DNA of 64,000 nt from Candidatus Bathyarchaeia archaeon (GTDB lineage: Archaea > Thermoproteota > Bathyarchaeia > Bathyarchaeales > Bathycorpusculaceae), in contig JBEKSS010000012.1 of the NCBI GenBank assembly GCA_049516875.1, positions 8,758 through 72,757 on the forward strand. The letters are read 5' to 3'. The notes under the pieces are model-generated. The model was not told where the DNA came from and did not search any database. It worked only from the letters and a program-made list of their open reading frames with translations. Shown here in pieces: positions 12,408 through 62,678 of this stretch; positions within the stretch are counted from its first letter, which is position 1, and every line of letters begins with the position of its first letter. Made by a program: the position numbers and the translations under genes.

Positions 12408-12438
12408 CGCGCACAGTCATTGACTTTTACATTCATTT

Positions 12439-19890: not shown

Positions 19891-19907
19891 AAAGGCGCGC
19901 GTTAACA

Positions 19908-41859: not shown

Positions 41860-42017
41860 TTAACGCCATCCCCTTCTGTAAGAGATAAATGAACTATACA
41901 CGCATCTATAAAAATGCCCCATATGTGTCTTATATCGTTTATTTCTCGGATTTCTTATCGCTCATACATGTGATGTCTATTCTCCCAAAAAGATCGGATT
42001 GTCCAGATGATGATGCA

Positions 42018-42068
42018 GTGGGATCGCTGGGATTTGAACTCAGGACAAATGGAGATATCTCCCGAAAA
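42018..42068 (-). repeat. tRNA 3'-half remnant (att-like), copy 2
   Basis: Reverse complement CCTGAGTTCAAATCCCAGCGATCCCAC is a T-arm plus acceptor 3' strand, with no 5' half. Confidence 0.7.
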
Positions 42069-42457
42069 CTCGCTTTAGACTCGACATTTTAGATATCTCC
42101 GATATACCATGAGCAACCAGACGCTTAGAAACAATATGCCGAAAGTGTAGCACAAGAATACAACTGGAAACGATAGTGCAAAAAGTTAAGGTGTGGGAGA
42201 TTTCTCCAGCACAATCCCTTTTTTCTCTTCGTTTTTGCCCTTTTTGAGTTTTCTTCTGAGAATCAACGGGTCAAACATACTTTACAAAGACGCAGAGAAC
42301 AATCTTCCACTATGAATTTCAGCAACTTTGTAAAGAAGAACTGGTTAGGCTTGCAGATTAGAGTGCGTCAATAGGCAATGCACCAAAACCAATAGAAGAT
42401 TTCTCCATAAGCTTTATCCTGTTCGTTGAACTAAACTGCAGCAGGAGAAGGGAGAAT

Positions 42458-45058
42458 ACGAAGAGAGTACTAGCGGTAACAGCGATGCTAGTAGTTGTTT
42501 TTTCCATGTTTTCAGTCTTCACACAGGTGAAGGCTCAAGGTGCAAGTAGTCTTAACGCGAGTAGTACTCAGTCTTCACCAGAGACTTATCCAATTTCAAA
42601 TTTCACTGATTTCCAAAATGGAACGACGTTGACGGTCGTCGACTTTGGAAATGGGACATTGGATGAAACTTTCGAGACCCTAGTCAACAAAACCGCAACT
42701 CTTAACGTTCTGAATGACGCGTCGAATCAGTCTATCTCCTTGTTCACTTCTGAACAGGAACATACGAGTTACAAAAACTCAACCCAAACAGCAATGATGG
42801 AGCAGCAGCTGCTCATGGGTTTCACATATGAAATCGCCAAATACCGTATGCAATGGGATTGGAGCACAAATCTATGGTTACTGCAGGCTTATGTTGAGGT
42901 AGGAATCAATGTAGACATTGAATTTGGGCTGAGATTACCTGTAAACATAACTGTTGAATATCCCGAACAAATGACCATTGGTCGTAATTACACCTTCTAC
43001 GCGACCATTACACCCATTGACAAACCCAATTTCAATGAGGGTCTATGCGTGTTCCAAGCGTATGTATGGGCGGAAGCTGGAGTTTGGACACCTTTTACAG
43101 GTTGGGTGGTGTATCGTGCACAGTATGGGCCTGACTATGATCTTTCACAGAGTTTTCAAACGCCTCTTGGTCACGCTATAGCGTTTCCAATTAGCCCAAT
43201 ATATGCGAAAGTGTTTGAGGCAGATTGGGTTTGTCCTTTTGATTTTCTCGATATTTATTTGGGAGGTCAACCCGGATTCGGCTCAGACAGAGTTACTGCC
43301 GTGGCCAACGTAACAGGAGACGGCCAAGTAGTGGCTGGATCCAACATAACATGGACAGCACCTGGCCAGCGTCTACCATTCACAGTGCTTGCCAACAACT
43401 TGGATCCGACGACTAGTTACGCAAATATCAGCATTTCAAATTTCAGGTACTACTTCACCAACTTCTATATGCGGTTCTGGCTGAAATTCGATTTTAATTC
43501 ATGGATAGACTGGCTTACAGGCGACCCAGAGATACCTATCTACACTCTAGATCTTAGCTGGCTTGTCAGAAACCTCAATGGATATGTGGGGACGCATCTT
43601 GGATATCCAAACAGCGTCAACGTGGATCTATTCGTCAAGAACTATGGTGTTCAAATAATACAGATTAACCCCTCAGTCGCGAGTATAGAAGCCACTGAAT
43701 CAGCTTTATTCGAAGTTTCAATAATGAACACAGGCAGTGTTAACGATACATTTGAATTGTCTCTTCAAGGAGTTCCAAGTGATTGGCAATATAGCTTTTC
43801 TGAGAACGATCTTAATGTGACGCCAGGAAATATGATGAAATCGCACTTTTCGATAAAACCGCCTGGAAACGTCAGTCAGGGGCATTTCTCTTACAACGTT
43901 ACAGTCTCCAGCATGATGGCGCCTTTAGACGGCTTGGTCGCAACTGATCTGAGGACTTTTGCGATTGATGTCTCGCCACGGGCTCCTCCTCAAATCCAAG
44001 TTCTTATTCCCCAAAACACAACATATGCCACCAATACCATTGCGCTCAACTTCACGATCAACAAACCTAGCGTTTGGATCGGATACAACCTTGACAACAC
44101 TGGGAATATCACAGTTCTCGGAAACACAACCCTTATCGGCTTGCTCGATGGTTCTCATAACGTCGTCGTTTTCGCGAATGATAGCTTGGGGGATATGGGC
44201 TCATCCGATCTCGTCTATTTCTCAGTCCGAATTCCAATTCATGATGTCGCCGTGATTGACGTCGTATCCTCCGCTGCTCAAGTGTTTCAAGGTGCCGTGG
44301 TGAATGTCGACGTCACCGTCAAAAACAACGGAACAGAACCAGAAACATTCACTGTCAAAGCATACTATAACACTACAGCAATAGGCACGATTAATAACGT
44401 GTTTCTCAACCCAGCCGATACTCAGATCCTTACGTTTGCCTGGAATACTTCAACTGTTACTCCTGGAGTTTATACCCTGAAAGGGGAGGCTGGCCAAGTT
44501 CCTAATGAGGTCAACACAGCTAATAACGTGAAAGTCGATGGAACTGTGTCGATTCAAGCGCAAGCTGAAGAAAAGTTCTACGTCACAGTCAATGTGACTG
44601 ACAACAAGGGAAATCCAATATCAAATGCTGCCGTTTACACCAACCTAGAATCGAAACTGACGGACGGCGGATTTGTAGTGTTCACGTTCACAAAGGGCAA
44701 CTATACGATAAACGCCTATAAACAAGGTTATCAGTCTGGATCAGCCAACGTTTACGTGGACCAGAACATGACCCTCGTCCTTGTTCTATCACCGATACCG
44801 ATTCCTTCAGTAGTCGGGGGCTACTCCGTTTCTATGAAAGGACATAGCACAACAACACCAACTTCATTCTATCTCACTATGGCAATAATGCTGTCCGCTC
44901 TCTTCACAGCAATTAGACGCAAAACACGGAAAGAAAAAACAACTAGTATTTTAGGAGAACGCGTTCCTTCCATCGATAGACAATGTACTTCGCAAGGTTC
45001 AGTTGTCTGTTCTTCTCTGTTTTGTCCAAACTGTAAGGCAAGAAGGAAAGCGCAGTAA
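42458..45058 (+). CDS. Secreted surface protein with Ig-like/CARDB domains and C-terminal TM; probable ACG start
   Basis: Signal peptide (M)KRVLAVTAMLVVVFS..VKA; HDVAV..V.VKNNG.EPETF; VVGGYS before the TM. Confidence 0.8.
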   Translation, partial: TKRVLAVTAMLVVVFSMFSVFTQVKAQGASSLNASSTQSSPETYPISNFTDFQNGTTLTVVDFGNGTLDETFETLVNKTATLNVLNDASNQSISLFTSEQEHTSYKNSTQTAMMEQQLLMGFTYEIAKYRMQWDWSTNLWLLQAYVEVGINVDIEFGLRLPVNITVEYPEQMTIGRNYTFYATITPIDKPNFNEGLCVFQAYVWAEAGVWTPFTGWVVYRAQYGPDYDLSQSFQTPLGHAIAFPISPIYAKVFEADWVCPFDFLDIYLGGQPGFGSDRVTAVANVTGDGQVVAGSNITWTAPGQRLPFTVLANNLDPTTSYANISISNFRYYFTNFYMRFWLKFDFNSWIDWLTGDPEIPIYTLDLSWLVRNLNGYVGTHLGYPNSVNVDLFVKNYGVQIIQINPSVASIEATESALFEVSIMNTGSVNDTFELSLQGVPSDWQYSFSENDLNVTPGNMMKSHFSIKPPGNVSQGHFSYNVTVSSMMAPLDGLVATDLRTFAIDVSPRAPPQIQVLIPQNTTYATNTIALNFTINKPSVWIGYNLDNTGNITVLGNTTLIGLLDGSHNVVVFANDSLGDMGSSDLVYFSVRIPIHDVAVIDVVSSAAQVFQGAVVNVDVTVKNNGTEPETFTVKAYYNTTAIGTINNVFLNPADTQILTFAWNTSTVTPGVYTLKGEAGQVPNEVNTANNVKVDGTVSIQAQAEEKFYVTVNVTDNKGNPISNAAVYTNLESKLTDGGFVVFTFTKGNYTINAYKQGYQSGSANVYVDQNMTLVLVLSPIPIPSVVGGYSVSMKGHSTTTPTSFYLTMAIMLSALFTAIRRKTRKEKTTSILGERVPSIDRQCTSQGSVVCSSLFCPNCKARRKAQ

Positions 45059-45439
45059 TTAGAAGACTGTGTTTGACTACAATCTTTGAAAACCACCCAC
45101 CAAAACGTTAGGGCTAGGGTCGTTTAGATACCATGACGCTTCAAGACCCCTGAGCGTGCCATTTTTGCATGCCTTGGTTATACTGATGGCGTGAGATATG
45201 GTTGAACTTGATGTTTGGCATTGATGGTAGTTCGGGATTGCCTCTGATATCTCCCTAGTCTTGATGGTATTTCAGAAAGTGTTAACAGAACAAGATTGTT
45301 GTATCTGATAGTCTAACTATTAGAAGAATGACAAATGCACATACGGCACATACCGAGCCTTGACCTTGACTCTCAATTATCGGCTAGAATCGCAGTTTTC
45401 TCGGATTATTGAGAGCGCGCGCTCGAACCCGCGACGTGT

Positions 45440-47247: not shown

Positions 47248-47439
47248 AACCTGACCTGCTTCCAGTCGGTCCACACCACATCCATCACCCGATCCTCTCA
47301 GCACGATAGCACTCAAGGCTTCGCCGCAGAAACACTCGTCGGCAAATGAACCTTTGACAAAACCTAGAGAAGAATAAGAGGTTCTGTGTAGTCTTTGTCG
47401 AATTAGGGGTTCATGCGAAAAATCGTCGGATGACTAATC

Positions 47440-47904
47440 TTAGACTAATGTTAATTCTACTTTCTTTTTATCAACATAAACTTGGAACTTTGCAAGGACT
47501 TCCATTCCCAGTACACTTGGACAGTATCTAAGCATTTTTTCTCTCTCCACCTCTGTTGCGTCTGCAGGAATGCCGATTATTTGAAAACCGCCACCGTATG
47601 TAATCTTGTGTTCTTCTTTTGGAGACTTGAATGTCAAAATGACTGAGCGATTTATTATCTTGTTCCTGAACGTCCCACCGAATCCTATCGCTCCCTTTTT
47701 AGCTTCTGGCAGAAGCGCAAACTCAAGTCCAAGAAGGTTAGCTTCTTTTTCAGTTATTGCAGAATACGTGGAACCAGTATCAACAAGAAAATTAATGATT
47801 CTACCACAATGAAAAGCAGGTACCTCAAATAAAACAGGGATTATCGGACGATTGTTGTTAATAGTTAACCCAGTAAACTTGAAAAGTTTTCCCTCACAAT
47901 GGGC
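47440..47904 (-). CDS. Retropepsin-like (clan AA) aspartyl protease; start unresolved
   Basis: Open frame from 47904 with FLVDTGSTYS, GFGG, SVLGMEVL; no ATG/GTG/TTG before the DTG motif. Confidence 0.75.
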   Translation of the reverse strand, partial: AHCEGKLFKFTGLTINNNRPIIPVLFEVPAFHCGRIINFLVDTGSTYSAITEKEANLLGLEFALLPEAKKGAIGFGGTFRNKIINRSVILTFKSPKEEHKITYGGGFQIIGIPADATEVEREKMLRYCPSVLGMEVLAKFQVYVDKKKVELTLV

Positions 47905-48141
47905 CTAGAAGAACATAGCCAATTGCTTTGAATCTATGAACTCTACTATCGCAGCTTTTTTGTCTGCTTTCTTGAGCATATTGGTTATATTTTCGTATGT
48001 GCTACCCTTTGCAATTATTTTCTTGTTTTGTATTACAATCCATTGATTGTTATAATCTCTCCTTATATTTTTATAATTCTCCTTAAACCATTCCAAATTT
48101 TCTCTTGAAAGCTTGAACAATTCATCCTTTTCTGTTGGCAT
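47905..48141 (-). CDS. DUF5678-like small protein
   Basis: NLEWFKENY..Y.NQWIVI..KIIA.G. Confidence 0.7.
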   Translation of the reverse strand: MPTEKDELFKLSRENLEWFKENYKNIRRDYNNQWIVIQNKKIIAKGSTYENITNMLKKADKKAAIVEFIDSKQLAMFF

Positions 48142-48607
48142 GTTTTCTCTCTCCCATTAGCCAATATCAACATGAAACAGTTATTTAATTGTTGTTCTAA
48201 CAACAAGTCTGAAACATTATATGATTTATGAAGCTTTCATACACTTTACAGCTTCAAGCAACAATGTTATGGCTGAGATTACGCAGATAAACACTCCATC
48301 GTTTTACCCAATAGCTTGAGATACAATTCTCTCATAAACAAGGCTCAAACATTAATTGAGGAGATAATCACTCAAGATACGCCCTTGTTTCTGCAACACC
48401 GAAAGCTATCCGACGAATTTTCACAGAGAAAACCATCCGACGAAGACTACACAGAACCAAATAAGAAAACCTTAAAGAGCATGATCAATAATTCATAAAC
48501 GTAATATATAGTGAACGTTAAGATACAGTCTCGTGATTCGAAAACAAATAATCTCGAGTCACGCGATTAACGCTAACCCTTAACAAATCACTCGGAGGTG
48601 CATTAAT

Positions 48608-49768: not shown

Positions 49769-52155
49769 CCGCCAAAAAAATCTGTGAGTTTCCTGGTTTC
49801 TTTCCCACCAGTCCTAGACTCCAACAGTTGCTCCTCAGCCACCCCGAAGCTTTCAAGAATTCTGGCCGCCGCGGGCACAATTTGCTTAGACACGTAGTAC
49901 TCTATGTCAACGTCATCGTAAGAAGCCAGCACGTAGGGCTTAACCCTTTCATACAAGCGGCCTGTGCCACCGACCACCACGTAGCCTATTTTATCCCCCA
50001 CTGCCAGTTCCCAGCCCTTCGCCCTCAGCATCTTTGCAGCTTCAACATGCGAGGCTCTAACCTCATACTGCTCAGCAGGCTTACTCAGCGTTTTCCAGAT
50101 GACAAGATCATGGTATGGAACGCGCTTTTGCTGAAGCTCATAGATGAACTGATGCACAAAATCCACAGCCTTCCTAGGCGATTGCTCCTTCAAAACTATT
50201 TCCAGAACCTTCTCTTGAACCGTTTTGGCAATGGTCGCCCAGTCTCCCCGTACAACCTCCATGCCCACGATGTCAAGCCGACCATCAGGCAGAAGTCCAG
50301 CATACCGCTTCTTGGCCTCTGTGAAAAAGATTCTCACATAAACCTTGTCGAGCTTGATTTCCAATCCCAACTTTTTCCCGATGTCCTTCGCAAGTTTCTC
50401 AATTCTGCCAGGCTGATTCTCTATGAATATGCTGTCTGTGTCGCCGTAAACGACCTTCAACCCGTCCTTCTCAGCCATGTCAATCGCTGTGAGTATGGTG
50501 TGTCTTCCCCAAGCGGCCGCTGCCTCAGCCACGGGCTTAACGTACCACCTTGCACCCGTCCACCCAGCATAGCCGTAAGACGCGTTAGTGATAACCTTCA
50601 GGGCCTTTTGCCGCGCGTCCAGAACACGATACTCAACGCTTTTCGGCTGAAGCTCCTTCATTTTTAGACGGATTTCATCCCGTACGCTGATGAGATAGGA
50701 CAGGACTTCCTTGTAGAAGCCGGGAGGTTCTTTGCGAAACTTGTGCTTGACTTCTGGGGTCACGTAAACTCCGCCAGGCGGTTCAGGTTCTTTCGGCGTT
50801 ACGTAAGTGTCTGGAGAGAGGTTGTAGGTGATCATGATGTTAGGGTACATAGACTTGAAGTCGAGGACAGCGATGTTTTCGTGCAATCCCGGCTTTGGCT
50901 GAAGCACAAGGCCACCAGCGTACGGTCTGTAAGGCTGCTCGATTCTCCTAGGCACAAGCTCACCGAGTTTGTGAGTGTGCCTTATCAGAAACCATTCAAC
51001 CCGAAAGCCTGCTGCTGCCGTGCCGACATGATCCAACGGCAGACCTACAAGGTTAGAGAGTTGCATGGCAAAATCCAAGATTGCATCAGTTATTCCCATG
51101 ACACAACAAGTGTTGTCCATGGAAAACTGTTTCAGGATTCCGCGTTTCTCTTTGTTGTCCCAGTAGTCTGCGAAGTTTATGTCCTCGACGATTTCGCGGT
51201 TTTCAATCTTCATGACGCCAAGATAGTCGGCCAAATTAGCCAGAGTCTTCACTTTAACTTCTGGAAACTCTTCCGCATAATCGACCAAATCCAGATTAAC
51301 CCTGCCATTAAGCGAGATATGACCGTAAACACTCGTGTGCGGTTCCGTTTTCGCTCGGTCAATGCGCAGATGCATACCAAGCTTCTTGCACCTTTCAGTG
51401 AGGTACGGCCATTCCTGCCCATTCACACCATAGCCAACGATAATGTCAGGATTAACGCTTTCAACATAATTCATGAAGGCCTCCAGGACTGGCTTGTCGC
51501 TTCTGCTTTCGTCCGCCAAGAATTGCTTTTGTTCGCCACGGTTCGTCGCAGCCGAAATGATGACAACGGGGTTTCTGTCGGGTTTAGGAGAGCCTTCTCG
51601 GCTATAGTATATTGTAGAAAAGCCCAGCACGCGCAGCGGCGGACCCTCAGCTTTTTCAACCGGTTTTGGGAACGATTTTGCCAGGTAAACCTTGTCTATT
51701 CGGACGCCCAGCCTGTTTGCTTCCTCAACTGCCTCTATTTCATGCCATCCACACGGAACAACATCGTTGTCAATAAGGTAACGCATGGCAACACGAACGT
51801 CATCTTCGAAACACTCTCTCACGCCTTCGAACTCTCGAACCTGCTTTGCACACCTCGCTATTCCTTCAGCATTCTTGCAGTAAACCCTGACTGCTTTCAC
51901 AGGTTTTCCAAAAAACTTGCGCTCAACAACCTCAGGCTTCGCCGCCAAAACGCAATGGCTCGCGACAATTTCTTCAACAACCTTTCCAGGATCCGCATCA
52001 TCTGCAACTACCGCATAGAAGTACGGAACAAAACTCCTGTCGACGATAAGCACTCTCTCGCCCGCGCTGCTTATGCCCCAGACCCAAATTTCCGACAACT
52101 CATCCTTGGCCTCATAGTTAATATCGAGAAGCCAAAAAGTGACCTTCATGGCCAA
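49765..52155 (-). CDS. polB: Family B DNA polymerase (B3-like) with degenerate exonuclease motifs
   Basis: DFKSMYP, KVITNASYGY, YGDTDS, KKRY intact. Confidence 0.95.
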   Translation of the reverse strand: MAMKVTFWLLDINYEAKDELSEIWVWGISSAGERVLIVDRSFVPYFYAVVADDADPGKVVEEIVASHCVLAAKPEVVERKFFGKPVKAVRVYCKNAEGIARCAKQVREFEGVRECFEDDVRVAMRYLIDNDVVPCGWHEIEAVEEANRLGVRIDKVYLAKSFPKPVEKAEGPPLRVLGFSTIYYSREGSPKPDRNPVVIISAATNRGEQKQFLADESRSDKPVLEAFMNYVESVNPDIIVGYGVNGQEWPYLTERCKKLGMHLRIDRAKTEPHTSVYGHISLNGRVNLDLVDYAEEFPEVKVKTLANLADYLGVMKIENREIVEDINFADYWDNKEKRGILKQFSMDNTCCVMGITDAILDFAMQLSNLVGLPLDHVGTAAAGFRVEWFLIRHTHKLGELVPRRIEQPYRPYAGGLVLQPKPGLHENIAVLDFKSMYPNIMITYNLSPDTYVTPKEPEPPGGVYVTPEVKHKFRKEPPGFYKEVLSYLISVRDEIRLKMKELQPKSVEYRVLDARQKALKVITNASYGYAGWTGARWYVKPVAEAAAAWGRHTILTAIDMAEKDGLKVVYGDTDSIFIENQPGRIEKLAKDIGKKLGLEIKLDKVYVRIFFTEAKKRYAGLLPDGRLDIVGMEVVRGDWATIAKTVQEKVLEIVLKEQSPRKAVDFVHQFIYELQQKRVPYHDLVIWKTLSKPAEQYEVRASHVEAAKMLRAKGWELAVGDKIGYVVVGGTGRLYERVKPYVLASYDDVDIEYYVSKQIVPAAARILESFGVAEEQLLESRTGGKETRKLTDFFGG

Positions 52156-52555
52156 CCCCCCATCTCAAATAACCAATACTGAGCAAAAGCCACTCTTAAA
52201 CACTTCACGCATGAAAAGCAAGAAAAAAGAATCGAACACAAAACAAAAGATTCGTACCCCCACTCGACGGTTTGAGCCTCAAAAAAACCACGGTTTAGTC
52301 ACAAATTAGAATCACTTTTCGACGCGCGCGCGCGCGTGATTTATGACGATTTCATCATGGCCAAAATCACAAACGGTCGGAATCCCCGTCTATGGTGGGA
52401 AGAAGAGGGAGAAGAATCGGCTATTTTCCTTCGGTTTCTAAAATGACATGGAGACATGAGTCAGTTATGATATATGGCAAATCTCAAGACCGATACAGAG
52501 ACCTTAAGACGGGTCGTTTCATCAAGAAGCCTTAGAAAAACAGAAGCGCGCGCTT

Positions 52556-52790
52556 GCTGAGTGTTGTTTACGAAGTTATTGTGGAATATCACGTTATCCG
52601 AAGAGGACCAGAGGGAGATGCCGTAACCACTGTTTGCTATTATGTTGTTTTCCAAAATGGTGTTGTTTGAAGAGGAGAGGAGGCACATGCCGTAGCTGCT
52701 GCTTGATGATGCGTTGTTTCCAGAAATGATGTTGTAGTTTGAAGAGGAGGAGAGCACGATACCTGTCCAGTTGTTTGCCATTACGTCGTT
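52556..52790 (-). pseudogene. NosD/right-handed beta-helix protein fragment
   Basis: GI.L.SSS.N.I..N repeats ending at IFHNNFVNNTQQ; both ends abut CG palindromes. Confidence 0.8.
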
Positions 52791-53035
52791 TTAGCGCGGC
52801 CGCGCCAAACGGGTTCAAGTCCCCTTTCAAATAGCGACCACGATAAGATCGATAGAACCTGTATTGTGTGCATAATAACCCCAAGCTACCGATGTTTTCT
52901 TCTGTATATCGTGGTAGCGCGCGCCTGGCAGTCAAGCTATATAAGTGATGTTGAGAATACTGAGATGCACGTTCTAGATCTATTATTTTAGTGATGGATT
53001 TGCGCGTCAAAAACAACAGAGTGGAAACAAGTTAG

Positions 53036-53701
53036 ATGGCGAAACATATTTGGAGAGGTAGAGGCAGGCCTCTTAAGAGGATGCATTCACACAAAGATGG
53101 AAGGGTTCTGGAGAACCTTGCCAGAATCGCGGTGTTGCATAAGGTTGATGCAAGTGAATTTTTCAATCGCATTGTGGAAGCTTGGAATCACGAGGGGTCA
53201 GAATGTGAGCAGGTGATTATAGAATGTCGCAAGAGGACGAAGAATTCAGCGATTTTTCTCTTTACCACCGATCGAGAGGTTGTAGCTCAATTTCCAATAT
53301 CGATTACCATCCTGCAAGGAAAGAATCAGCTCGAAAGCTACACGAAAACCATTTTTGCCAGAATTTCTTCAGTCAAGAATTTCGAAGGTGTAAACTCTAA
53401 GATTGGGGACTTGAAAGTTGGAATGAAAAAGGTCAGCCTCAAAGCAGAGGTGCTTGAGATTCCAAAATCCAAAATCGTCTACACGAGATACGGAACAACG
53501 GCTTGTGTATCAAACGCACTCATCAGAGACGAAACTGGTTCAATGAAAATGAGTTTATGGAACCAGCAGATCAACACGGTGCATAAGGGCGACGTAATTG
53601 ACGTCAAAAATGGTACAGTAACTTGGTTCAGCGGTGAAAGGCAGTTGCGACTGGGGAGAAGCGGAAGCTTAAGCGTCATCGAATGCGTGCTCGCACCATA
53701 G
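53036..53701 (+). CDS. OB-fold ssDNA-binding (RPA/SSB-like) protein with N-terminal extension
   Basis: KIGDLK.G, DETGS..SLW, GD.I..KNG, GERQLRLG. Confidence 0.8.
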   Translation: MAKHIWRGRGRPLKRMHSHKDGRVLENLARIAVLHKVDASEFFNRIVEAWNHEGSECEQVIIECRKRTKNSAIFLFTTDREVVAQFPISITILQGKNQLESYTKTIFARISSVKNFEGVNSKIGDLKVGMKKVSLKAEVLEIPKSKIVYTRYGTTACVSNALIRDETGSMKMSLWNQQINTVHKGDVIDVKNGTVTWFSGERQLRLGRSGSLSVIECVLAP

Positions 53702-53714
53702 GAAGTGGTTTTTA

Positions 53715-53837
53715 ATGCCGAAGACTAAAGCCATAATAAACATTCAAAACGTCGTTGCCGCTGCCACCTTGAACCAAAAAGTTGACTTAAACGCTGTCGT
53801 GAAGAGTTTTCCAGGAGTTCAGTATCGCCCAGAACAA
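53715..53837 (+). pseudogene. tbp: TATA-binding protein N-terminal fragment (41 aa)
   Basis: INIQNVVA..LNQKVDL..YRPEQ, then similarity stops before the expected FPGL. Confidence 0.8.
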
Positions 53838-53981
53838 GAACAGAATCCCCGCAGAAAACCTATCAATAGCGCTCGACGTGATAGAGCTAAGGCCATCAAA
53901 CGAGAAGAGCTCGTGGTGGAAAGAAGCAGAAGAGAAGATGATAGCCCAATTTTGTCTTTTCACCTCCAAAAGTAACTCTTT

Positions 53982-55160
53982 ATGAGTGCTTCAGAAGAGC
54001 TTGAGAAGAATGCAACCAACTACGCGTTGGAAGCAGTGCGCTTGGACAAGCAAGGGTCAAGAGGCATGGCAATAACCATGTATCAGAAATCCATAGAAAG
54101 CCTGCTTCAACTTGTTCAACTCTATCCTGAATACGGCTTGAACAAAGTCTACGTGCAAAAAGCGATCGCCTACCAAGAACGCATAAAGGCGATACAAGGC
54201 GCCGTAGGTGTGCCGCGCGAACAACCTCACGCAGAAGTTAGAAACGGCGGGTGTGAGGGTGAAACCAAAAAGAGTGAAGGCAGCAAGTCCAGTTACGAAG
54301 AACTGATAGTCACAGAGAAGCTCAACGTGAAATGGGAGGAAGTCGTTGGACTGGACCCCGCAAAGAAGGCGGTGAAGGAGGCAATAATCTATCCTGTTCA
54401 GAGACCCGACCTGTTTCCATTAGGATGGCCACGGGGAATATTGCTCTTCGGGCCGCCAGGTTGCGGGAAAACATTGCTGGCAGCAGCCGTCGCTACGGAA
54501 ATAGACGCTACTTTCGTCTCAATTGACGCGGCTTCGATAATGTCAAAATGGCTGGGTGAAGCTGAACAGAATGTCGCACGCCTGTTCGGTCAAGTAAGAA
54601 AATCATCGTTGGAAGGAAAGCCTGCAATAGTCTTCGTCGATGAGCTTGACTCTTTGATGGGAAAACACGCAAATGAAGTAGGCGGCGAAATCCGTGTTCG
54701 CAACCAGTTCTTGAAAGAGATGGACGGTATCGTAGACAAGGGCAAGAACCTTCACGTGTACGTGATTGGAGCGACGAACAAGCCTTGGGACTTGGACTGG
54801 GCTTTCATAAGAAGATTTCAGAAAAGAATTCTGGTCCCACTGCCTGACCACCATACACGATTGATGATGTTCAAGCTCTACACTGCCAGTCTTCAACTTG
54901 CTCCAGATGTCGAGCTGCAGGAGCTCGCGAGACTCTCAGAGGGATTCTCAGGAAGCGACATAAGAGATTTCAACCAGTCGGCACAGCTGAAACTCATCGG
55001 CGAATTCTTTGAGTCAGGTAAGGCAAGCGACAGAATGGCCAAGCCACGACCGTTGACCATGGAGGATTTCAGGCAGATACTCGAGGAAAGAAAGCCCAGT
55101 GTATCCCTTGACATGCTGACGCTTTACAACAGATGGTTTGAAGCATTTAAGGCTCTCTAG
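53982..55160 (+). CDS. cdvC: Vps4/CdvC AAA+ ATPase with MIT domain
   Basis: AVRLD..YQERI MIT domain; [34 protein letters not shown]. Confidence 0.9.
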   Translation: MSASEELEKNATNYALEAVRLDKQGSRGMAITMYQKSIESLLQLVQLYPEYGLNKVYVQKAIAYQERIKAIQGAVGVPREQPHAEVRNGGCEGETKKSEGSKSSYEELIVTEKLNVKWEEVVGLDPAKKAVKEAIIYPVQRPDLFPLGWPRGILLFGPPGCGKTLLAAAVATEIDATFVSIDAASIMSKWLGEAEQNVARLFGQVRKSSLEGKPAIVFVDELDSLMGKHANEVGGEIRVRNQFLKEMDGIVDKGKNLHVYVIGATNKPWDLDWAFIRRFQKRILVPLPDHHTRLMMFKLYTASLQLAPDVELQELARLSEGFSGSDIRDFNQSAQLKLIGEFFESGKASDRMAKPRPLTMEDFRQILEERKPSVSLDMLTLYNRWFEAFKAL

Positions 55161-55208
55161 AAGGAGGATGATGCAACAAGAGTGTGTTGAAGCGTTGGGT
55201 GGATAGGT

Positions 55209-55336
55209 TTAGCCTTTCTCCGTTTCCTCTAAAGTTTCTTCTGGCAATTCCTGCTCTTGCACAGCAAAACAACGTGTTATGTATCCAGCAATCAGGTTCC
55301 GAACCTTTGGCGTTCCACCAGTCACTAAACTGTCAT
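55209..55336 (-). pseudogene. rps17e: Ribosomal protein S17e C-terminal fragment
   Basis: TPKVRNLIAGYITR plus acidic tail; N-terminal half absent. Confidence 0.7.
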
Positions 55337-55732
55337 ATCTGAACTATATTAGACCCATGATTCATTATAAGCTACAATAACCTCTCATAAAGCGTGCGCT
55401 TCACGATGTTTTGTTCAGAAATCATTTCCTCACCACACGTGCTACGAACTCAATCGACTTGAAAACCTTCCTTTAAATTGCTGCTAAACAGTTTAGCGCG
55501 CGCGCTAGCCACCATATAAGCACACAATACGCGCGAGCTTGACTTTATGCTAAGCTTATATCCACTTGTGCTACTAAGGTCGCTGAATCGCCGTCATACA
55601 CGTTCCAATAGTAACCCTAGAAGCCCTAGCGCGTTTGCCCGGCTAGAAAAGAAGGAATTCACCAGGTGAAACGCTAAACTGCCAACAATATAGCCTTCTG
55701 AAAACTTTCATCTCCATCTGTTGCTTCTGGGA

Positions 55733-57901
55733 TTACACTACAAGAGGCGTAGGCTTCTGCACCCTTCGAACCTGCTTCATGAAGCTCCTGTACCAATTCT
55801 CAATTTCTGGCGATATGCTTGGCGGAACCTTCTCCATAGCTTTCTCAAAATCGCTGAAGGTAACCTCTTTTGCGTTGATGTCTCTTCTCAAGGCCTTCAT
55901 GGCGGCCTCTCTGCACACAGATGATATATCGGCGCCGGAGTAACCTTTCGTTATGCGATGCTCCTTGATGTCCACATCCTTTGATAGTGGCATGTTCTTC
56001 GTGTGAATCTTAAAGATTTCAAGCCGGGCAGCTTCGTCAGGTTCTGGAACATAGATCAGCCGATCAAATCTGCCCGGCCTCAATACAGCTGGGTCGACGA
56101 TGTCGGGCCTATTTGTCGCAGCTATAACTATGATGTCTTCTAAGCGTATCATTCCATCCATTTCTGTTAGAAGCTGGCTGATGACCCGTTCAGTTACGCC
56201 GCTGTCGCCGTAACCCAGCCTCCTCCTTGGAGCAAGAGAGTCAACCTCATCGAAGAATATTACGGCTGGCGAAGCCATTCTAGCCTTCCTGAAGACCTCT
56301 CGAATAGCCCTTTCAGACTCGCCAACCCACTTAGAGAAGACCTCCGGACCCTTAATCGAGATGAAGTTTGCCTCGCTCTCAGTTGCAACAGCCTTGGCCA
56401 GCATCGTCTTCCCACACCCTGGCGGGCCTATTAACAGTATACCTTTAGGCGGCTGAATCCCCAATCTCTTGAAGACTTCAGGATTCTTCAGCGGCCACTC
56501 AACAGCCTCCTTTAACTCCTCTTTAACCTCCTCCAAGCCTCCCACTTCATCCCAATGAACAACCGGGACTTCCACAGCAACCTCCCTCATGACTGTAGGC
56601 GTAATCTCCTTGAAGGCGTTCATGAAATCATCCATCCGAACCTCCATCTTCTCCAGGAAGCTGGAAGGTATTCGCTCTTCCTCCAGATTTATCTCGGGAA
56701 GATACCTACGTAGAGCTTTCATGGCTGTCTCTCTACACAGGGCGGCCAAGTCGGCACCCGTGTAACCGTGCGTCCGCTCACCAAACACCTTTAAGTCAAC
56801 GTCACCGGCTAAGGGCATACCTCTGCTATGAATCAACAATATTTCATGACGCCCCCGCTTGTCCGGGATCCCTATCTCCATCTCGCGGTCAAACCTCCCA
56901 GGCCTCCTGAGAGCTGGATCCAAGGCATTCGGCCTGTTCGTTGCACCTATTACTATGACATTTCCTCTACCAGACAATCCGTCCATGAGAGCTAGAAGCT
57001 GAGCGACAACCCTTCTCTCCACTTCACCCGTAACCTCCTCACGTTTAGGCGCTATGGAGTCCAGCTCGTCTATGAGTATGATGCTCGGAGCGTTCTGTTG
57101 AGCCTGTTGAAATATCTCTCGAAGTCTCGCCTCCGACTCCCCATAGAACTTACTTATTATCTCAGGCCCGTTTATTGAGAAGAAGTTTGCATCCGACTCA
57201 TTTGCTACTGCTCTAGCTAGGAGTGTCTTTCCGCAGCCGGGTGGACCGAGCAGTAGAACTCCTTTCGGAGGATCTATTCCAAGCCTCTGGAAAATCTCGG
57301 GATGCCGCATTGGAAGTTCAACCATCTCCCTTATCCGTTGAATCTCCTCCTCCAACCCTCCTAAGTCCTCATAGGTGGTACGTGGTACACCTTCAGCTTC
57401 CGCAACAGGTTCAGTCAATATCTGCAATCTAGTATCGTGAGTCATCTTGACTATTCCGTGGGGCTGCATCTTCGCAACAGTGAACTGAACAGAATGACCA
57501 AGCATCATAACGAGCGTCGTGTCTCCCTCAACAAACGTCCTATCCATAAGTCTGTTCTTCACAAAATTTGCAAAGTCTTCGTCAAAGTTAAATCGCATAT
57601 CCACTGGAGCAAGCACTATGCTCATAGCATTTTTAACTTCAGCCTTGCGAACTACAACGTACTCGTTTATTGATACGCCGGCATTTTTACGTAAGAACCC
57701 ATCGATTCGCATAATGCTTGGATCCTGGTCTTCAGAGTACGCTGGCCAGGCGATCGCCGATGTCTTTTTCTTCCCTGAGAACTCTATTACGTCTCCAGAT
57801 GAAACCCCTAACTTTTGCATTGTGGTCTGGTCTATTCTAGCGATTCCTCTTGCCACATCTTTCTGTCTGGAATCCAGAACTCTCAGCTGAACTTCGCTCA
57901 A
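55733..57901 (-). CDS. cdc48: CDC48/VCP AAA+ ATPase
   Basis: N-domain plus two AAA modules (GPPGCGKT x2, RPGRFD x2). Confidence 0.96.
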
Positions 57902-58058
57902 TCTTCAACGCTCCACTAAATATATTTCTGATAGAAGCACTAAACCCTTTCTCCCAATATAAGTAAAGGACCATTAAAGTGACCCTGGAACTTCAATACA
58001 AATAGGGCATGTGCTGACATGACATACAAGGTCCACGCAGCTCCGCGCGCGCACGCGC

Positions 58059-58432
58059 GTTTACGATTTTTCCATTTCTGTGGATGCGGACGGAAGGCCC
58101 AGGATAAGGGAGTTTGGTAATGTGCAAAAGTGTCACTACGGCCCGCGCGCGCTCAAATCAGGAAGCAAAGCGAACCGCTAGTGGATGTGTTAGATGAGGA
58201 AGAGGTTGTAGTGGTGGCCGAGCTTTCAGGCGTGGAAAAGGAGGACATAAGTCTTTACGCGTCCAAAGATGGACTTACTATCAGCGTGGACACCCCGCAA
58301 CGAAAATATCAAAAGGAGCTACCACTGCCAGAGGAAGTGGATCCTAAACCAGTGAAGGCCTCCTACAAAAATGGCGTCCTCGCGATACGATTCAAAAAGA
58401 AGAGCAAAAGAGAAAAGATCCGCATTCAGTAG
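58059..58432 (+). pseudogene. Archaeal Hsp20, 5'-truncated and frameshifted
   Basis: VYDFSISVDADGRPRIREFGNV in one frame, EPLVDV..AEL.GVEKEDI..ASYKNGVL in another. Confidence 0.85.
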
Positions 58433-58574
58433 CTGAACCGCGCTAGAAAAAATGCGTCTCCTCTCGCTTTTAGATCTCATGATTTCTCTCTCTATGATAG
58501 CCCATGAACATTTGAGAAATCCAAAGAAAGATAAATCTTTAGTACAGCTTAAATGAAATAAGAGGTGATGGAAG

Positions 58575-58703
58575 ATGGGGAAAGTATATCGATGCCCAAA
58601 TTGTAATAGAACAGAAATCATATGGGATGCAGGACTTAGAAAAGCTGTATGCCCAAAAGATAAAACACCGGTAAACAACTACAAAACGGAAAATAATGCT
58701 TGA
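58575..58703 (+). CDS. 42-aa Zn-ribbon microprotein
   Basis: SD GAGGTGA; YRCPNC..VCPKD. Confidence 0.6.
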   Translation: MGKVYRCPNCNRTEIIWDAGLRKAVCPKDKTPVNNYKTENNA

Positions 58704-58921
58704 AAATATCTTTGACGTTCGCGCGCTAGCCTTTTCCTCTGAATCTCTGTCTTGCTTGAAATAGATCTAACCCGGACATAATTTGTTGCATAATATAGAG
58801 CGCATTGTAGCCCATCTCTTGTTCAATGCTGAAAGTCGATCTTAGCTATCGGCAAAGCCAGAAAACGACAAAAGATGCAAGTTTAGCTTATAAGCCCTAG
58901 TTCATAACTTTGCACGCACGC

Positions 58922-59089
58922 TTACGGCGTCTCTTCTTCTGTTTCGAATTTTGTGGTCCGTGTGGCACTTACTAGGTGGGTTACGTAGCCGGCTATCCTG
59001 TTTGTCAGTTTTGGGGAGGAGGTTTTGACGAGGCTTTTAGTGAGTTCTTTGTTTGTCCTCTTCACTCGCTCCGGCCGCACCTTACCCAA
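58922..59089 (-). pseudogene. rps17e: S17e paralog with an in-frame internal deletion (55 aa)
   Basis: MGKVRPERVKR..NRIAGYVTHL; lacks the central F..DF.N segment. Confidence 0.75.
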
Positions 59090-59137
59090 GATTTAACGCC
59101 CCTTAACCCCCCGCTCCTTTGCCTCCATCCACACATA

Positions 59138-59312
59138 GCGCGCTAGGGCGTTGCTAAATTCAGATTTTAATAGTTTTTATTCGGTTTCATGAGTAGTTGG
59201 CAGTTTTTGGTTGAACAATCCTCCCATCAGAAGCACCCAAACACGCACCGAGAAAAAAGCTAACACCTATTAAAATCCATTTTTGTCCGAATTTAGCAAC
59301 AGCCTAGCGCGC
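59138..59312. repeat. 175-bp element with nested inverted repeats
   Basis: 24-bp terminal IR 22/24 identical (59138-59161 and 59289-59312); perfect 11-bp inner IR (59163-59173 and 59267-59277). Confidence 0.75.
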
Positions 59313-59353
59313 GCAAACTTTACTCCTGCACGTTTCCTCAAAAGGAAAGAGAG

Positions 59354-59448
59354 GGGTTTCCAACGATTCAACCCTGTAGCAAACTGACAGGCACCAGTTG
59401 CATTTGTTGGATTGAACCGGGAAACCCATCCAAGACTGAAGGGTGCCT
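59354..59448 (+). ncRNA. Candidate pseudoknotted RNA
   Basis: GGGTTTCC/GGAAACCC stem; loop AGGCAC complementary to downstream GTGCCT. Confidence 0.3.
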
Positions 59449-59746
59449 AAATAAAAGTGTTAGCGCGCGCTAATGGTATTTTATGGTTACACTAATGGGA
59501 TTGTCTTGTTTAATGTAGGTGGTTAGGTGGGGTTATGTGTTTGCCTGTGCACTTGTAGTGTCTGGTCTACTTGAATACTACCTGTTTTTGATGTTGTTTT
59601 GGGTGTTTGTGAGGTGTTCGTGTGGGGTTTGTTTCGTTCATGGAAATAGCTTGTGTCAACCCTTTGGTAGTAGCGCGCTAAATTGAAAAGGTCACAAAAC
59701 TTCTTTATATATTAGGTATCTGAGCTTGAACTAGCGGAGATCGAAT

Positions 59747-59971
59747 ATGAAACCTGAACATTATAAACCGATAAGGAAAGAAAAGCCCAAACGAAAAGGC
59801 AAGATTAGTGCGCGCAAAAGTCGAATGCTTGCAGTGGCTCAAGAATGGAAACCCATTACTTCTCCACAATTGCGTGAAGCTTACTCTACTAAAATAGAAT
59901 GGGCAAGGAAGCTGATTCCCAAATTGAAAAAAGAAGCAGAAGGGCCGGAAGAAAAAGAAGAGCTTAGATAA
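59747..59971 (+). CDS. Basic 74-aa hypothetical protein
   Basis: SD GGAG before ATG; upstream TTTATATA box. Confidence 0.5.
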   Translation: MKPEHYKPIRKEKPKRKGKISARKSRMLAVAQEWKPITSPQLREAYSTKIEWARKLIPKLKKEAEGPEEKEELR

Positions 59972-60590
59972 GCGCACGCACAAATTCTGATGGGCTTGTT
60001 TTGGCTGTTCCCTGACAAAAGAAGCATTTTTCAACCATAAAACCACACAAAAGAACCGCCAAAAACGAATACCAAACAAGGCAAGTGTAGTAAATGATAA
60101 AAAAACTAAAATTTAAGGCGCGCGCTTGAAAACGGCAATAGACCACGTTATGCTGGAACCATGCCTCACTGTAAACGGTTAGGACGCGCGCTGCCTTGTC
60201 CCGAAATTATGTGTTGAAGTAGGTTGGTGAGACTGCATTGTCGGTTCTCCCAATGTTTTCTGCTGCTTCTCTTGTTAGGACTAGACCAAGTATGTTATAG
60301 TGAGAATAAAGGCGCCAGACGTTGTAAGGACGCTGCCTCCAGCAATAAACAGTCCGCTTGATTATCTCTCCCATCTTGACGCGTGTGGGCCACTCATATC
60401 CAAAGAGTGTCATAAGACCCCTTTAATCTCAGGGCGATCTCATCCAGCTTCTCACGCAATATACGGTTCCAATCTAATAAGGGATGCATCCTCGTATATA
60501 GTGTTTTTAAGGAGGATGTTTGACTATCAACACGCTTATTAATAGCGCCATAGACTTGACCTAAGAGCGCTAATTTTGGAGCACAACACT

Positions 60591-60650
60591 ATGAGCGAAG
60601 AGGAAGAGGAAGAGGAAGAAGAAGAGGAACTAAGGGATGAAGGAGAGTAA
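60591..60650 (+). CDS. 19-aa poly-Glu micro-ORF
   Basis: MSEEEEEEEEEEELRDEGE; GGAG upstream; mixed GAA/GAG codons. Confidence 0.35.
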   Translation: MSEEEEEEEEEEELRDEGE

Positions 60651-60764
60651 TAGGGCATTAAGTGTGGAACCAAGCTCTACGGAGCCCTATAGACGCGGAA
60701 ACAACGCCTTGTTTTCAATACCCTATTTTTTAATCTTAAAACCTTTGAAGGAGGTGACAGACAA

Positions 60765-60902
60765 ATGGCCAAGTGTCCGACCTGTGGAAAAGAAGTTGAA
60801 ACGCCGATAAAGGAGTGGAATATGGGCAGGAACAAAAAGATACATGTTAAGCAGTACGAGTGTTGCGGGAAAAAATTCCGTGAATACGGAAAGAAGGTTT
60901 AG
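60765..60902 (+). CDS. 45-aa Cren7-like Zn-binding microprotein
   Basis: SD GGAGGTGA; MAKCPTCGKEVETPIKEWNMG..HVKQYECCGKKFREY. Confidence 0.7.
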   Translation: MAKCPTCGKEVETPIKEWNMGRNKKIHVKQYECCGKKFREYGKKV

Positions 60903-60991
60903 GAGCTGTGTATGCTTTTCAGGAGTATCTCCTTCAACTCTACCAGAAGTTTTGAGCGCGCGCGCAAAAACCCATTGACGGTCTGCAACTA

Positions 60992-61216
60992 TTAAGTCTC
61001 AGGGATGGGTGGTAGGTAATCGTTTGGTTTGGTTGGGGGTAAAGTTTTATCTTTCCCCTGATTTTTGTTTCTTACTTTGTAACGGAGCAGGTGTCCGCAT
61101 TTCCAGTCTATCGGGCGGCCTAGACTGTCATGTTTTTCCTGTCCTTTAGGAACTTTGCGTCCACAGAACGCGCACCAGTAATCACAGTTGAAATCTATGT
61201 ATCCTCTTGACGTCAT
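60992..61216 (-). CDS. Zn-finger microprotein
   Basis: SD GGAGG; YWCAFCG..KCGHLLR. Confidence 0.6.
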   Translation of the reverse strand: MTSRGYIDFNCDYWCAFCGRKVPKGQEKHDSLGRPIDWKCGHLLRYKVRNKNQGKDKTLPPTKPNDYLPPIPET

Positions 61217-61290
61217 TTGCCATCCTCCAGTTCAACTAGTTTTTTCAGGAACTCTGCCGGGGTAATGCCTTATCCAACCAGCGACGTTGC

Positions 61291-61452
61291 CTATTGAGGT
61301 CTTGGCGGTGGTCGTGGAGGCGAGTGGGTAGCTTCCCGTCTGGCAAAACTCCTCCGATAAAAAACAAAGGCTAGAACCGCCAGAACTATGCCTATTACCA
61401 GAACAATGCCTACCAAGACCAAAGGGTCAATACCCAAGATAGTCTTCCCCAA
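61291..61452 (-). CDS. 53-aa single-TM microprotein with Pro-rich tail
   Basis: MGKTILGIDPLVLVGIVLVIGIVLAVLAFVFYRR..PPRPPPRPQ. Confidence 0.5.
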   Translation of the reverse strand: MGKTILGIDPLVLVGIVLVIGIVLAVLAFVFYRRSFARREATHSPPRPPPRPQ

Positions 61453-61610
61453 GGATAGCTCTGCCGCCCGCCTCTAATAAGACTATCTCAGTCAATAATA
61501 TTCAGATTTGGGTTGGTTTGGGGTAAAGTTTTATCCGCCATCCCAAGAACTTCGCTAAATAATTTACATCTCAAATCTGCGGATGGAGTAATTCTATAAC
61601 ATTTCAACGT

Positions 61611-62108
61611 TTACAAAACTTTTATATGTTCAATTTTTCGGGTTAGGATCTCAATGATACGGTCGTTGTTGAGGTGCATCATTGGTTTGTTGCAGGCGGG
61701 GCATTTAAAGAGCAGCTCCAATGCCTCTTCGAAGGGGTGTAGCTTGCAGCTTGGCGTTTGGCAGCTGTAGAACTCGTGGCTTTTCTCGTATTCAAGTCGG
61801 GTTTCCAGTTTTTCTAGAACACGTCGTTTTTGGTTTAGGATAAAGCCTTCCAGTTGGTCTGGTTGGAGTCTCCAGTTGAAGATAAACCAGCCTGTTTCTT
61901 TATCGCGGCATCGCCTGAGAGCCACGATAGAGTGGTCATAGAGCCTGTAGACTGCCTTGCGAATCAGGTTGAGGCGTATTTGGGTTTTATCCGCTATCTC
62001 ATTATCACTAATCTCGTGAACCCCTTTGAGGACCTCAACTACTCTCACAGCCTCCTCTCCGAACAACGCAGCAACCTTCTTTAGCGTCTCGTTATCCACG
62101 AGGAACAG
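61611..62108 (-). CDS. tfe: Transcription factor E alpha; probable CTG start
   Basis: Winged helix with D.EIA, R..VY.L, RD.ETGW..F.W; Zn ribbon C..C, FEEA..F.CP.C; SD GGAGGTG 8 nt before CTG. Confidence 0.9.
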   Translation of the reverse strand: MFLVDNETLKKVAALFGEEAVRVVEVLKGVHEISDNEIADKTQIRLNLIRKAVYRLYDHSIVALRRCRDKETGWFIFNWRLQPDQLEGFILNQKRRVLEKLETRLEYEKSHEFYSCQTPSCKLHPFEEALELLFKCPACNKPMMHLNNDRIIEILTRKIEHIKVL

Positions 62109-62678
62109 TTTTGAAACACCTCCGCTTAGACAACGCGCAGACGAGCTCCGCCAGAAGAGAATATCAGAAACATCCACTCTCGAATTTCCATTCGCTAGCC
62201 TCTGCTTCCCCGTATATCACCCTAATGAATGTTGACTCTTCAAGCCCTTTTTTCGAAGCTCTTTTGCTCCCTTACTTAGTAGCGCTCAAGGCGATTAACC
62301 CTTTCCATCAAGAAAGCTATGAGAATACACGCGCTAAAGCCAAAAATCTTGGGCAAACGGTCAAAACTCTTAAATTCTGCAAATTTTGACTTCGTTCTCG
62401 CAAAAATACCCAGCTTTTAAAGGCGCAGGTTTGAAAAGGCATATACGAGTTTTCTGCACCTGATTATAACCCATCACTTAAATGCGAAGTGAATACTGCG
62501 CCTAAAACCGGAATCTGGGACAAGGGAGCCGCACGAAAATATCCTCACGATGCTCTGTTGTTTAATCGGTTTATAAGGAGGTTTGCGCATTATGGGGCAG
62601 TAGCGTTCTGTTGTTGAAGGACGAGAAGAACACAGCAACGTTACACGTTACAATCAATGATGAAAAGAGTGATGGAAA

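Follow-up and report, generated by a model that had tools for sequence, protein, structure and literature searches.

Among cyanobacteria, the GC-rich octamer HIP1 (GCGATCGC) was first noticed at the borders of a deletion, and is said to spread by substitution. It offers a natural point of comparison for the sequences considered here, which are short tracts of alternating cytosine and guanine (CG tracts) found throughout a stretch of 64,000 nucleotides (hereafter 'the window'; positions 8758-72757 of contig C12) from G000, a bathyarchaeial genome of 2.43 Mb and 47% G+C. A preliminary description of the window had proposed that these tracts are filler DNA, added where broken ends were rejoined. 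Two reports describe HIP1 as frequent within genes, as conserved, and as tied to two cognate methylases (PMC5861425, PMC4390886). Both HIP1 and the tracts are GC-rich palindromes of 8 bp that are over-represented tens- to hundreds-fold and are patchily distributed among lineages; the tracts differ from HIP1 in being mainly intergenic, in turning over rapidly, in their location at the joints of insertions and deletions (indels), and in that no C5 methylase was found alongside them in the genus.

Two further groups of known systems leave comparable traces. The excision footprints of Tc1/mariner and P elements, and retained target-site duplications, resemble the tracts in being short palindromic remnants in which two half-sites are combined between TA-type flanks, and in that the same genome contains an element with matching ends; unlike those footprints, the tracts yielded no allelic series of filled sites and footprints, and some tract-rich genomes lack the transposase of that element. 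The fillers produced by end joining (whether by Ku-LigD non-homologous end joining, NHEJ, by microhomology-based joining, or by polymerase-theta-type joining) also consist of extra nucleotides at joints, and include captured segments with filler at both ends. The sequence of known fillers varies from case to case or reproduces DNA close by, whereas a tract is one fixed self-complementary unit, and its occurrence does not co-vary with that of Ku.

The analyses described below confirmed that CG tracts occur far above chance, and comparisons between genomes support the view that they stand where DNA was broken and then rejoined, and that they often arose with the event itself.

Abundance, form and placement of the tracts

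The tracts quoted in the preliminary description were all located where it had placed them, and the window contains 36 alternating-CG runs of at least 6 nt. The hexamer GCGCGC was observed 45 times, against a mean of 11.6 and a maximum of 23 in 100 dinucleotide-preserving shuffles (0 of 100 reaching 45 or more). The excess extends to the entire G000 genome, in which GCGCGCGC occurs 447 times against an expectation of 24.6, and in which no dinucleotide repeat other than CG is enriched. Altogether G000 carries 1123 runs of at least 6 nt (503 of 6 nt, 204 of 7, 240 of 8, 112 of 9, 56 of 10, 5 of 11, and one each of 12, 13 and 14), a length distribution that drops off beyond ~10 nt. The G-first phase predominates among the 416 runs of at least 8 nt, with 212 reading GCGCGCGC and 28 reading CGCGCGCG. 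An A precedes 152 of the 212 GCGCGCGC runs and a T follows 136; the two coincide in 98 runs, as compared with 97.5 if they were independent (flank pairs A..T 98, A..C 25, G..T 20 and G..C 5). Because the A and T flanks are independent of each other, each half of a tract is set on its own. No conservation was found beyond these immediate flanks around the G000 runs of at least 8 nt.

It is highly improbable that the tracts reflect ordinary microsatellite slippage or an artefact of assembly. Slippage is in keeping with the 2-nt length differences seen between sister genomes, which make up about 4 of 16 listed indels, but only CG repeats are enriched, and their lengths stop at ~10 nt. With regard to assembly, a concern that the preliminary description had itself raised, the region was recovered in 19 metagenome runs from at least 14 studies (of peat, wetland and freshwater sediment), and the tracts are present without change in contigs of other studies. 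Among four runs that were compared with the window (X2, X3, X12 and X15), none of them the possible source of the assembly, contigs of X2 cover positions 51826-52839 with 0 differences, and those of X3 cover 52491-53740 and 57891-58649 with unaltered tracts.

The tracts are mostly intergenic, as had been suggested: by crude open reading frame (ORF) calls, which assign 85% of G000 to coding and 15% to intergenic sequence, 68% of the 8-nt runs are found between genes. Their density is alike in divergent, convergent and tandem spacers (0.70-0.82 per kb), and they are therefore not promoter or terminator elements. Within coding genes, some tracts were created by clustered multi-base changes that left the frame unchanged. 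With regard to the further suggestion that tracts are densest in a decaying region of the window, 18 of the 36 runs do lie within 52322-60965 (13.5% of the window), but intergenic tracts characterize the whole genome and the whole lineage, and are tied neither to that region nor to pseudogenes.

These properties bear upon the idea that the tracts are a functional motif of the HIP1 kind, under selection (perhaps bound by a protein of chromatin, segregation or recombination) and spread by biased substitution. The hyper-abundance and lineage specificity of an 8-bp palindrome are what such a motif would display, and both the frame-preserving clusters of changes within genes and the existence of equal-length GCGTGTGC/GCGCGCGC pairs (described below) are consistent with it. 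Tract positions, however, are not conserved between species, density is equal across spacer types, and neither whole-tract indels nor the location of tracts at junctions is explained, all of which renders this origin improbable. A cognate C5 methylase was also not found: PF00145 scored above its family cut-off in 0 of the 5 same-genus genomes, with one sub-threshold match in G002. N4/N6 methylases are present in the genus and are uninformative about the tracts. In a class-wide sample of 251 Bathyarchaeia genomes, PF01555 methylases were found in 168 and were missing from several that are tract-rich (defined as having at least 10 motifs and at least five times the control count); given that PF01555 does not discriminate, and that the genus lacks a detectable C5 methylase, methylation-driven spread was rejected. 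Searches of the literature, among them one on GCGCGCGC and archaea, yielded, supplements aside, no description of such tracts; by term, neither GCGCGC nor archaea was found in PMC4390886, and neither a footprint nor Bathyarchaea in PMC13343696.

Tracts at junctions, and their polarity and turnover

The preliminary description had called for a genome-wide comparison of tract frequency at breakpoints. When block ends within 3 bp of a CG run of at least 6 nt were counted, and the same ends were shifted to serve as controls, the observed values were far above the controls. Within G000, 173 of 3328 ends of repeat blocks satisfy this definition (5.2%), against ~1.1% for shifts of 30-200 bp. A comparison of the sister genomes G004 and G002, which covered 0.865 Mb of G004 and, from a total of 2.327 Mb, 1.585 Mb of G002, and which aligned 435,768 bp at 94.4% identity, provided 217 block ends; a tract was found nearby in G004 at 44 of them, in G002 at 36, in either genome at 65 and in both at 15, with control values of 3.5-5.5. 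When only runs of at least 8 nt were considered, 28 G004 block ends were near a tract, as opposed to 2-3 in controls.

Among 62 collinear junctions in the same comparison, assigned to classes by hand reading, the joint coincides with a tract in about 24 and with a degenerate, GCACGCGC-type tract in about 6. At one locus 146 bp of G002 correspond to GCGCGCGC in G004; elsewhere, 1312 bp are replaced by CGCGCGCG, 313 bp by CGCGCGC (a net difference of 306 nt that keeps the frame), and 279 bp of a zinc-ribbon ORF by a stretch containing GCGCGCGCG. Tracts stand at both ends of one segment of 6.9 kb and of one module of 284 bp, in new contexts, and in some cases the empty site bears a single, sometimes degenerate, tract and the insert is flanked by two.

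The use of G000 as an outgroup allowed the direction of some of these changes to be examined in 14 cases. Both junctions of the long allele were spanned in G000 in 2 cases, and at least one such junction was continuous there in 3 more (one of which has both, on different contigs); the content of the long allele was present in G000 in 1 case, G000 carried a different shorter allele in 2, and 6 were uninformative. Where polarity can be told, the tract belongs to the derived, shorter allele, and the ancestral allele is without a tract at the matching ends.

Turnover of the tracts is fast. Alignment blocks between G000 and G002 (83% identity, 40% of the genome) contain only 21 of the 416 runs of at least 8 nt, of which 15 are located away from block ends, and only 2 of those 15 are identical in the two genomes. 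At 94% identity, in-block runs of at least 8 nt were identical in 18 instances, substituted in 14 and altered by an indel in 11, and 65 of 99 substitutions were C>T or G>A. Two of four 10-nt indels in otherwise colinear alignments consist of the unit AGCGCGCGCG. A single tract may also be involved repeatedly, as one was found to adjoin different indels in three genomes.

Distribution across the class and an associated IS5-family element

Tract-rich genomes account for 23 of the 251 Bathyarchaeia sampled, belong to at least 6 families, and are patchily distributed across the class. In the peat genus that includes G000, the tracts are accompanied by a group of insertion sequences (IS) and MITEs (miniature inverted-repeat transposable elements). 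The parent element, 1082 bp in length with ends of GCGCGCATGCGTGTTCCTAAA, contains a single ORF between inverted ends of ~26 bp; the 328-aa product is a DDE_Tnp_1 plus DUF772 transposase (PF01609 at E 1.2e-23, and PF05598) that includes a Y-x2-R-x3-E-x6-K stretch, which we take to be the IS5-type signature. By its sequence the element is assigned to the IS5 family, to which it corresponds in transposase domain, single-ORF organization, size, inverted ends and possession of MITE derivatives, and from which it differs in that its outermost 6 nt are GCGCGC, representing either the element end or a duplicated GCGC target. G000 contains one relative, 43% identical (C7:36804-37906), as well as 14 paired copies of a ~184-bp MITE of the form TA-GCGCGCATGCNTGTTCCTAAA...TA and related ends such as GCGCGC-TGGCTTGTCCC. 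Flanks are mostly TA, a C precedes the inverted-end core in 91 of 94 cases, and the group always sits between two copies of GCGCGC. No long multi-copy IS element in G000 ends in tracts.

These elements suggest a second origin for the tracts, as excision footprints or minimal remnants of the GCGCGC-ended group, with 4 nt per end, or a duplicated 4-bp GCGC target in both its copies, left behind, and with the observed deletions and captures being IS-mediated rearrangements. Within the genus, much of the evidence is compatible with such a source. The end pattern was found in 5 of 5 genus genomes (39, 7, 29, 4 and 70 hits) and in 1 of the 26 other members of a set of 31 relatives, and the motif AGCGCGCGCT displays the same distribution (29-115 copies per genus genome, 0-9 elsewhere). 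Among 415 solo tracts of at least 8 nt, TA adjoins 102 on their left side and 92 on their right, the background being 4.2%, and both the G-first phase and a length limit near 2x6 nt fit two joined ends. Nevertheless, only 40 of the 1123 tracts in G000 (20 of 1116 tract pairs) bracket inverted ends, and alleles representing in turn an empty site, a filled site and a footprint were found for none of the elements (0 of 16 in one comparison and 0 of 9 in another), the flanks of which are located in lineage-specific DNA; for the MITEs, neither empty sites nor footprints could be recovered. Moreover, resection that deletes flanking DNA should also strip any leftover nucleotides of an element end.

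Further contrary evidence is found outside the genus. The end pattern is present in 8 of the 23 tract-rich genomes (28 of 251 overall) and thus lacking in 15, while four genomes with 4-18 such ends (G196, G178, G135 and G184, the first three of which encode Ku) are not tract-rich. Two tract-rich genomes, G080 (a single contig, with 94 motifs) and G089 (131 motifs), contain neither a homologue of the transposase nor any PF01609 match, which eliminates the IS5 transposase as a universal source. The tracts of G080 are located in spacers, as in G000 (400 kb examined), and no MITE-like inverted ends were seen beside them in 60 kb scanned. G080 also harbors a second, lineage-specific iterated self-complementary motif, GCTAGCTAGC (77 copies against a control of 3), together with AGCTAGCTAGCT (33 against 2), whereas the counts of this second motif in G000, G002, G004 and G089 are 0-4. 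As read from its sequence, the GCTAGCTAGC pattern is like that of the tracts, consisting of a 4-nt palindrome doubled inside a 6-bp palindrome. A transposon source therefore fits the genus and fails across the class, and as a general explanation it is unlikely.

Origin of the tracts

The explanation that we rank first, while holding it only tentatively, is a generic one in which a joint results when both of the ends that meet bear a self-complementary GCGC; it is placed ahead of the transposon source, and that in turn ahead of the nuclease-based origin discussed below. The tracts would then be self-complementary GC units left in deletions, in insertions of foreign segments and in small clean insertions. 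Two GCGC-bearing ends joined without overlap would produce A-GCGC/GCGC-T, a 2-nt overlap would produce a tract of 6 nt, and one extra base per end a tract of 10 nt. The GCGC itself may derive from a filled-in 4-nt staggered cut or from a short GCGC tail, perhaps added by an enzyme before joining. Scars of this type would persist only in dispensable DNA, which would account for both the intergenic bias and the high density in a decaying mosaic region; they would decay by CpG-to-TpG changes and by 2-nt slippage, and might be re-used as joints or targets, including by the IS5-family IS/MITE group. The commonest forms in G000 (AGCGC/GCGCT) and G080 (GCTAG/CTAGC) are both 4-nt palindromes doubled inside a 6-bp palindrome, and this doubled form is what arises when a 4-nt stagger is filled in, or when two GCGC-tailed ends meet. 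Repair synthesis fits all of the junction data, and does not track Ku. The original proposal of filler scars at breaks was thus borne out with respect to the location of tracts at breakpoints and on the derived allele, but nothing was found that demonstrates its proposed template-independent or snap-back synthesis.

The same doubled form would be generated if a resident nuclease, of restriction type or otherwise site-specific, made a 4-nt staggered cut at a 6-bp palindrome such as A^GCGCT (or G^CTAGC in G080) and the ends were filled in and rejoined to give AGCGC/GCGCT. Such breaks would also seed deletions and insertions, and the tracts would represent pre-existing fragile sites; the earlier suggestion that Z-DNA-prone tracts provoke breaks belongs here. 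In G000, AGCGCT is depleted (431 observed against 620 expected), whereas AGCGCGCT (82 against 34) and AGCGCGCGCT (98 copies) are enriched; the distribution of flank pairs around GCGCGCGC fits an RGCGCY-type site, the GCTAGCTAGC motif of G080 has the same form, and a patchy distribution among lineages is typical of restriction-modification systems. The 15 block ends with a tract in both genomes, and the tract that adjoins different indels in three genomes, lend partial support to the notion that tracts provoke breaks. This possibility is difficult to reconcile, however, with tracts at junctions being derived, and with clean 10-nt insertions where the ancestral ends are without GCGC. No nuclease was identified in this analysis, none of the 5 genus genomes has a C5 methylase above the cut-off, PF01555 is missing from several tract-rich genomes, and repeated cutting would predict growth in length without the observed limit of ~10 nt. 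On balance, we regard this origin too as unlikely.

A number of observations weigh against the preferred origin, in which GCGC-bearing ends are joined. No tract was seen at seven of the 62 collinear junctions, which are classical insertions between direct repeats (target-site duplications) of 7-14 bp, nor at the remaining ones, about 12 junctions being counted as tract-free in addition to these seven, with the division into classes depending throughout on hand reading. Most tracts cannot be polarised, because they are located in DNA that does not align, and the 15 of 217 block ends with a tract in both genomes fit pre-existing hot spots equally well. Some tracts align gap-free to GCGTGTGC-like sequences of equal length, and therefore represent substitution (gain or decay) rather than insertion; examples are GCGCGCGC at window position 52917, opposite GCGTGTGC in G003, and the tract at 22515, opposite GGCGTGTGC in G004. 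The fusion of a TBP gene fragment at 53836/53837 provides a counter-example without a tract, and two variant joints found in X15 contigs (see below) each derive from a single contig in which the shorter side is only 30-35 nt. No enzyme was identified that would supply GCGC to the ends. Finally, Ku was found in 6 of the 23 tract-rich genomes, compared with 70 of 251 overall, and was not found in G001 or G003.

With respect to the last of these points, G000 itself encodes a complete but split Ku-LigD operon (C9:90149-93943), in which Ku and the LigD polymerase are accompanied by a fusion of ligase and phosphoesterase, and for which TIGR02778, TIGR02772, TIGR02779 and TIGR02777 all score above their cut-offs (C9:90883-93943). 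The presence of Ku in 70 of the 251 sampled genomes indicates that bacterial-type NHEJ is common in Bathyarchaeia; as the maker of the tracts, the Ku-LigD system was rejected for its lack of co-distribution with them across the class.

The seven tract-free insertions noted above span 0.3-11 kb and have exact terminal direct repeats, and one of them (1483 bp) has long inverted ends. Ordinary IS or integrative elements of this sort thus occur side by side with junctions of the tract type.

If the tracts are indeed repair scars, they would preserve, genome-wide and in readable form, the history of illegitimate recombination in a class of archaea that is uncultured; each tract would mark a deletion, insertion or transfer (~30% of block ends between sister species carry one), and gene gain and loss in Bathyarchaeia would become directly countable. 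They would also point to a new means of joining ends, or else to a transposon or nuclease that leaves an atypical footprint. A broader and more doubtful proposal is that some Bathyarchaeia join breaks independently of Ku, in a manner not described before, by means of short self-complementary tails (GCGC, or GCTA-type in another lineage) through which any pair of ends could anneal, and that re-use of the resulting A(GC)4T scars, which would be fragile in their turn, drives a ratchet of gene loss and foreign capture. In practical terms, tracts flag mosaic, horizontally exchanged regions and pseudogene breakpoints in metagenome-assembled genomes.

The mosaic region at 52-62.5 kb

The window is syntenic with G004 and G002 between 1.7 and 52.2 kb (82-89% identity), and beyond that point, from 52 to 62.5 kb, its pieces match scattered places and contig ends of the sister genomes at 90-98% identity. 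Core genes of the sisters are only 82-89% identical, and the island at 52230-62500 looks to have been horizontally exchanged. Several of the boundaries between its pieces fall on tracts at 52917-52924, 59463-59470 and 59673-59678. The first of these is GCGCGCGC, directly after which homology with G004 and G002 starts (the equal-length G003 sequence at this site being the one described above); the second, also GCGCGCGC, is contained within TAGCGCGCGCTA at 59461 and terminates three blocks of homology to G004 and G001; and the third (GCGCGC) is the start of a block in common with G001 at 94% identity. This mosaic region contains extra or partial copies of information-processing genes, including those for an OB-fold Ssb-like protein, a TBP fragment, an ATPase of Vps4/CdvC type, a paralogue of Cdc48 that shares 71% identity with the copy in contig C1, a TFB-type zinc ribbon and TFE.

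At its left edge, 94 bp past the last base that is syntenic with the sister genomes (52228), the sequence A(CG)7T (52322-52337) contains the only 14-nt run in the genome. The preliminary description had reported that a NosD fragment nearby is bracketed by tracts, and this was found to be correct for one side. The corresponding ORF (52461-52781, minus strand) encodes part of a NosD/beta-helix protein, with a Pfam match limited to residues 3-79, so that NosD homology ends at the tract at 52546-52553; the feature at 52794-52805, 13 nt upstream of the ORF, is the GC palindrome GCGCGGCCGCGC rather than an alternating tract. Farther along, the TBP gene fragment (53715-53836, plus strand) is joined at 53836/53837 to DNA that matches the final 133 bp of contig C6 at 99% identity, reflecting either a recent rearrangement or a link between contigs. 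A (GC)5 run at 55496-55505, within TAGCGCGCGCGCTA (from 55494), occupies the spacer between a Vps4-like and a Cdc48-like gene. At 55333/55334 an insertion polymorphism was observed, with 125 extra letters present in contigs of X2, X3 and X15.

A further coincidence of a tract with a gene lesion involves a remnant of an hsp20 gene (58059-58432, plus strand), from which ~75 N-terminal codons have been lost. As had been claimed, the gene is cut exactly at a tract, in this case the double tract CGCGCGCGC-A-CGCGCG at 58044-58059. The remnant comprises two frames that switch at a second tract (58144-58152), and an intact paralogue in contig C1 has both halves in a single frame. Removal of 8 nt restores the frame as proposed, although removal of 2, 5 or 11 nt would do so equally. 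The copy in G004, which is 97% identical, shares the truncated, two-frame structure.

Mobile-element sequences are also embedded in this region. A MITE of the IS5-family group, ~177 bp in length (59138-59314; GCGCGC-TAGGGCGTTGCTAAATTC...GAATTTAGCAACAGCCTA-GCGCGCGC) has inverted ends that are bounded by tracts, and a solo IS5-family end (60185-60304, plus strand; CGCGCGC-TGCCTTGTCCCGAAATT...) is 85% identical to the end of the sole full copy in G000, on contig C7.

Metagenome contigs provided further variants of the same DNA. One X15 contig is without positions 60110-60957, a segment that begins just before the tract at 60118-60125 and extends into the tract at 60956-60965. In another, 61029 is joined to 61543 via AGCGCGCGCG, which takes the place of the 513-bp segment 61030-61542; in the window, GCGC is missing from both ends of that segment, which bear just a direct repeat of ~25 bp. 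Contigs were also observed to diverge from the window beside tracts at 60186/60188 (X3 and X12), 61699 and 52710, and the diverging letters at 61699 begin with CGCGCGCGC. The direct repeat (GGTTTGG..GGGTAAAGTTTTATC) occupies 61025-61050 and 61511-61535, and the same words were found near tracts in G002.

Other sites in the window

Additional tracts are located near positions 9443, 14924, 15108, 15758, 19895 and 21358. Those at 14924 and 15108 bound a two-copy element of ~195 bp (14920-15115), which is held within a 4.4-kb segment (12413-16865) that is not found in the sister genomes, where the empty site has two flanking tracts. The tract at 19895-19901 is situated at a deletion of ~200 bp relative to G004 and G002, and also adjoins a 4.7-kb indel in G002. 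Homology with G004 resumes at GCGCGC (22515-22520), where G004 reads GGCGTGTGCTCT. Slightly upstream, at 22330-22346, a tract had been said to shift the frame of a winged-helix remnant; the sequence is as described, but no such remnant could be detected there (no Pfam match).

A window-specific segment of 7.4 kb (38042-45437) carries a P-type ATPase gene, and a GCGCGCGC tract at 45415-45422 (in GAGCGCGCGCTC at 45413) is located 16 bp inside its right end. A tRNA attachment site at 45423 was considered and rejected, there being no tRNA in the window. A 1087-bp segment at 47372-48458, with no tract at its ends, is skipped in G004, in G002 and in contigs of X2, X12 and X15. The only Rfam match in the window is a 5S rRNA gene at 27642-27761.

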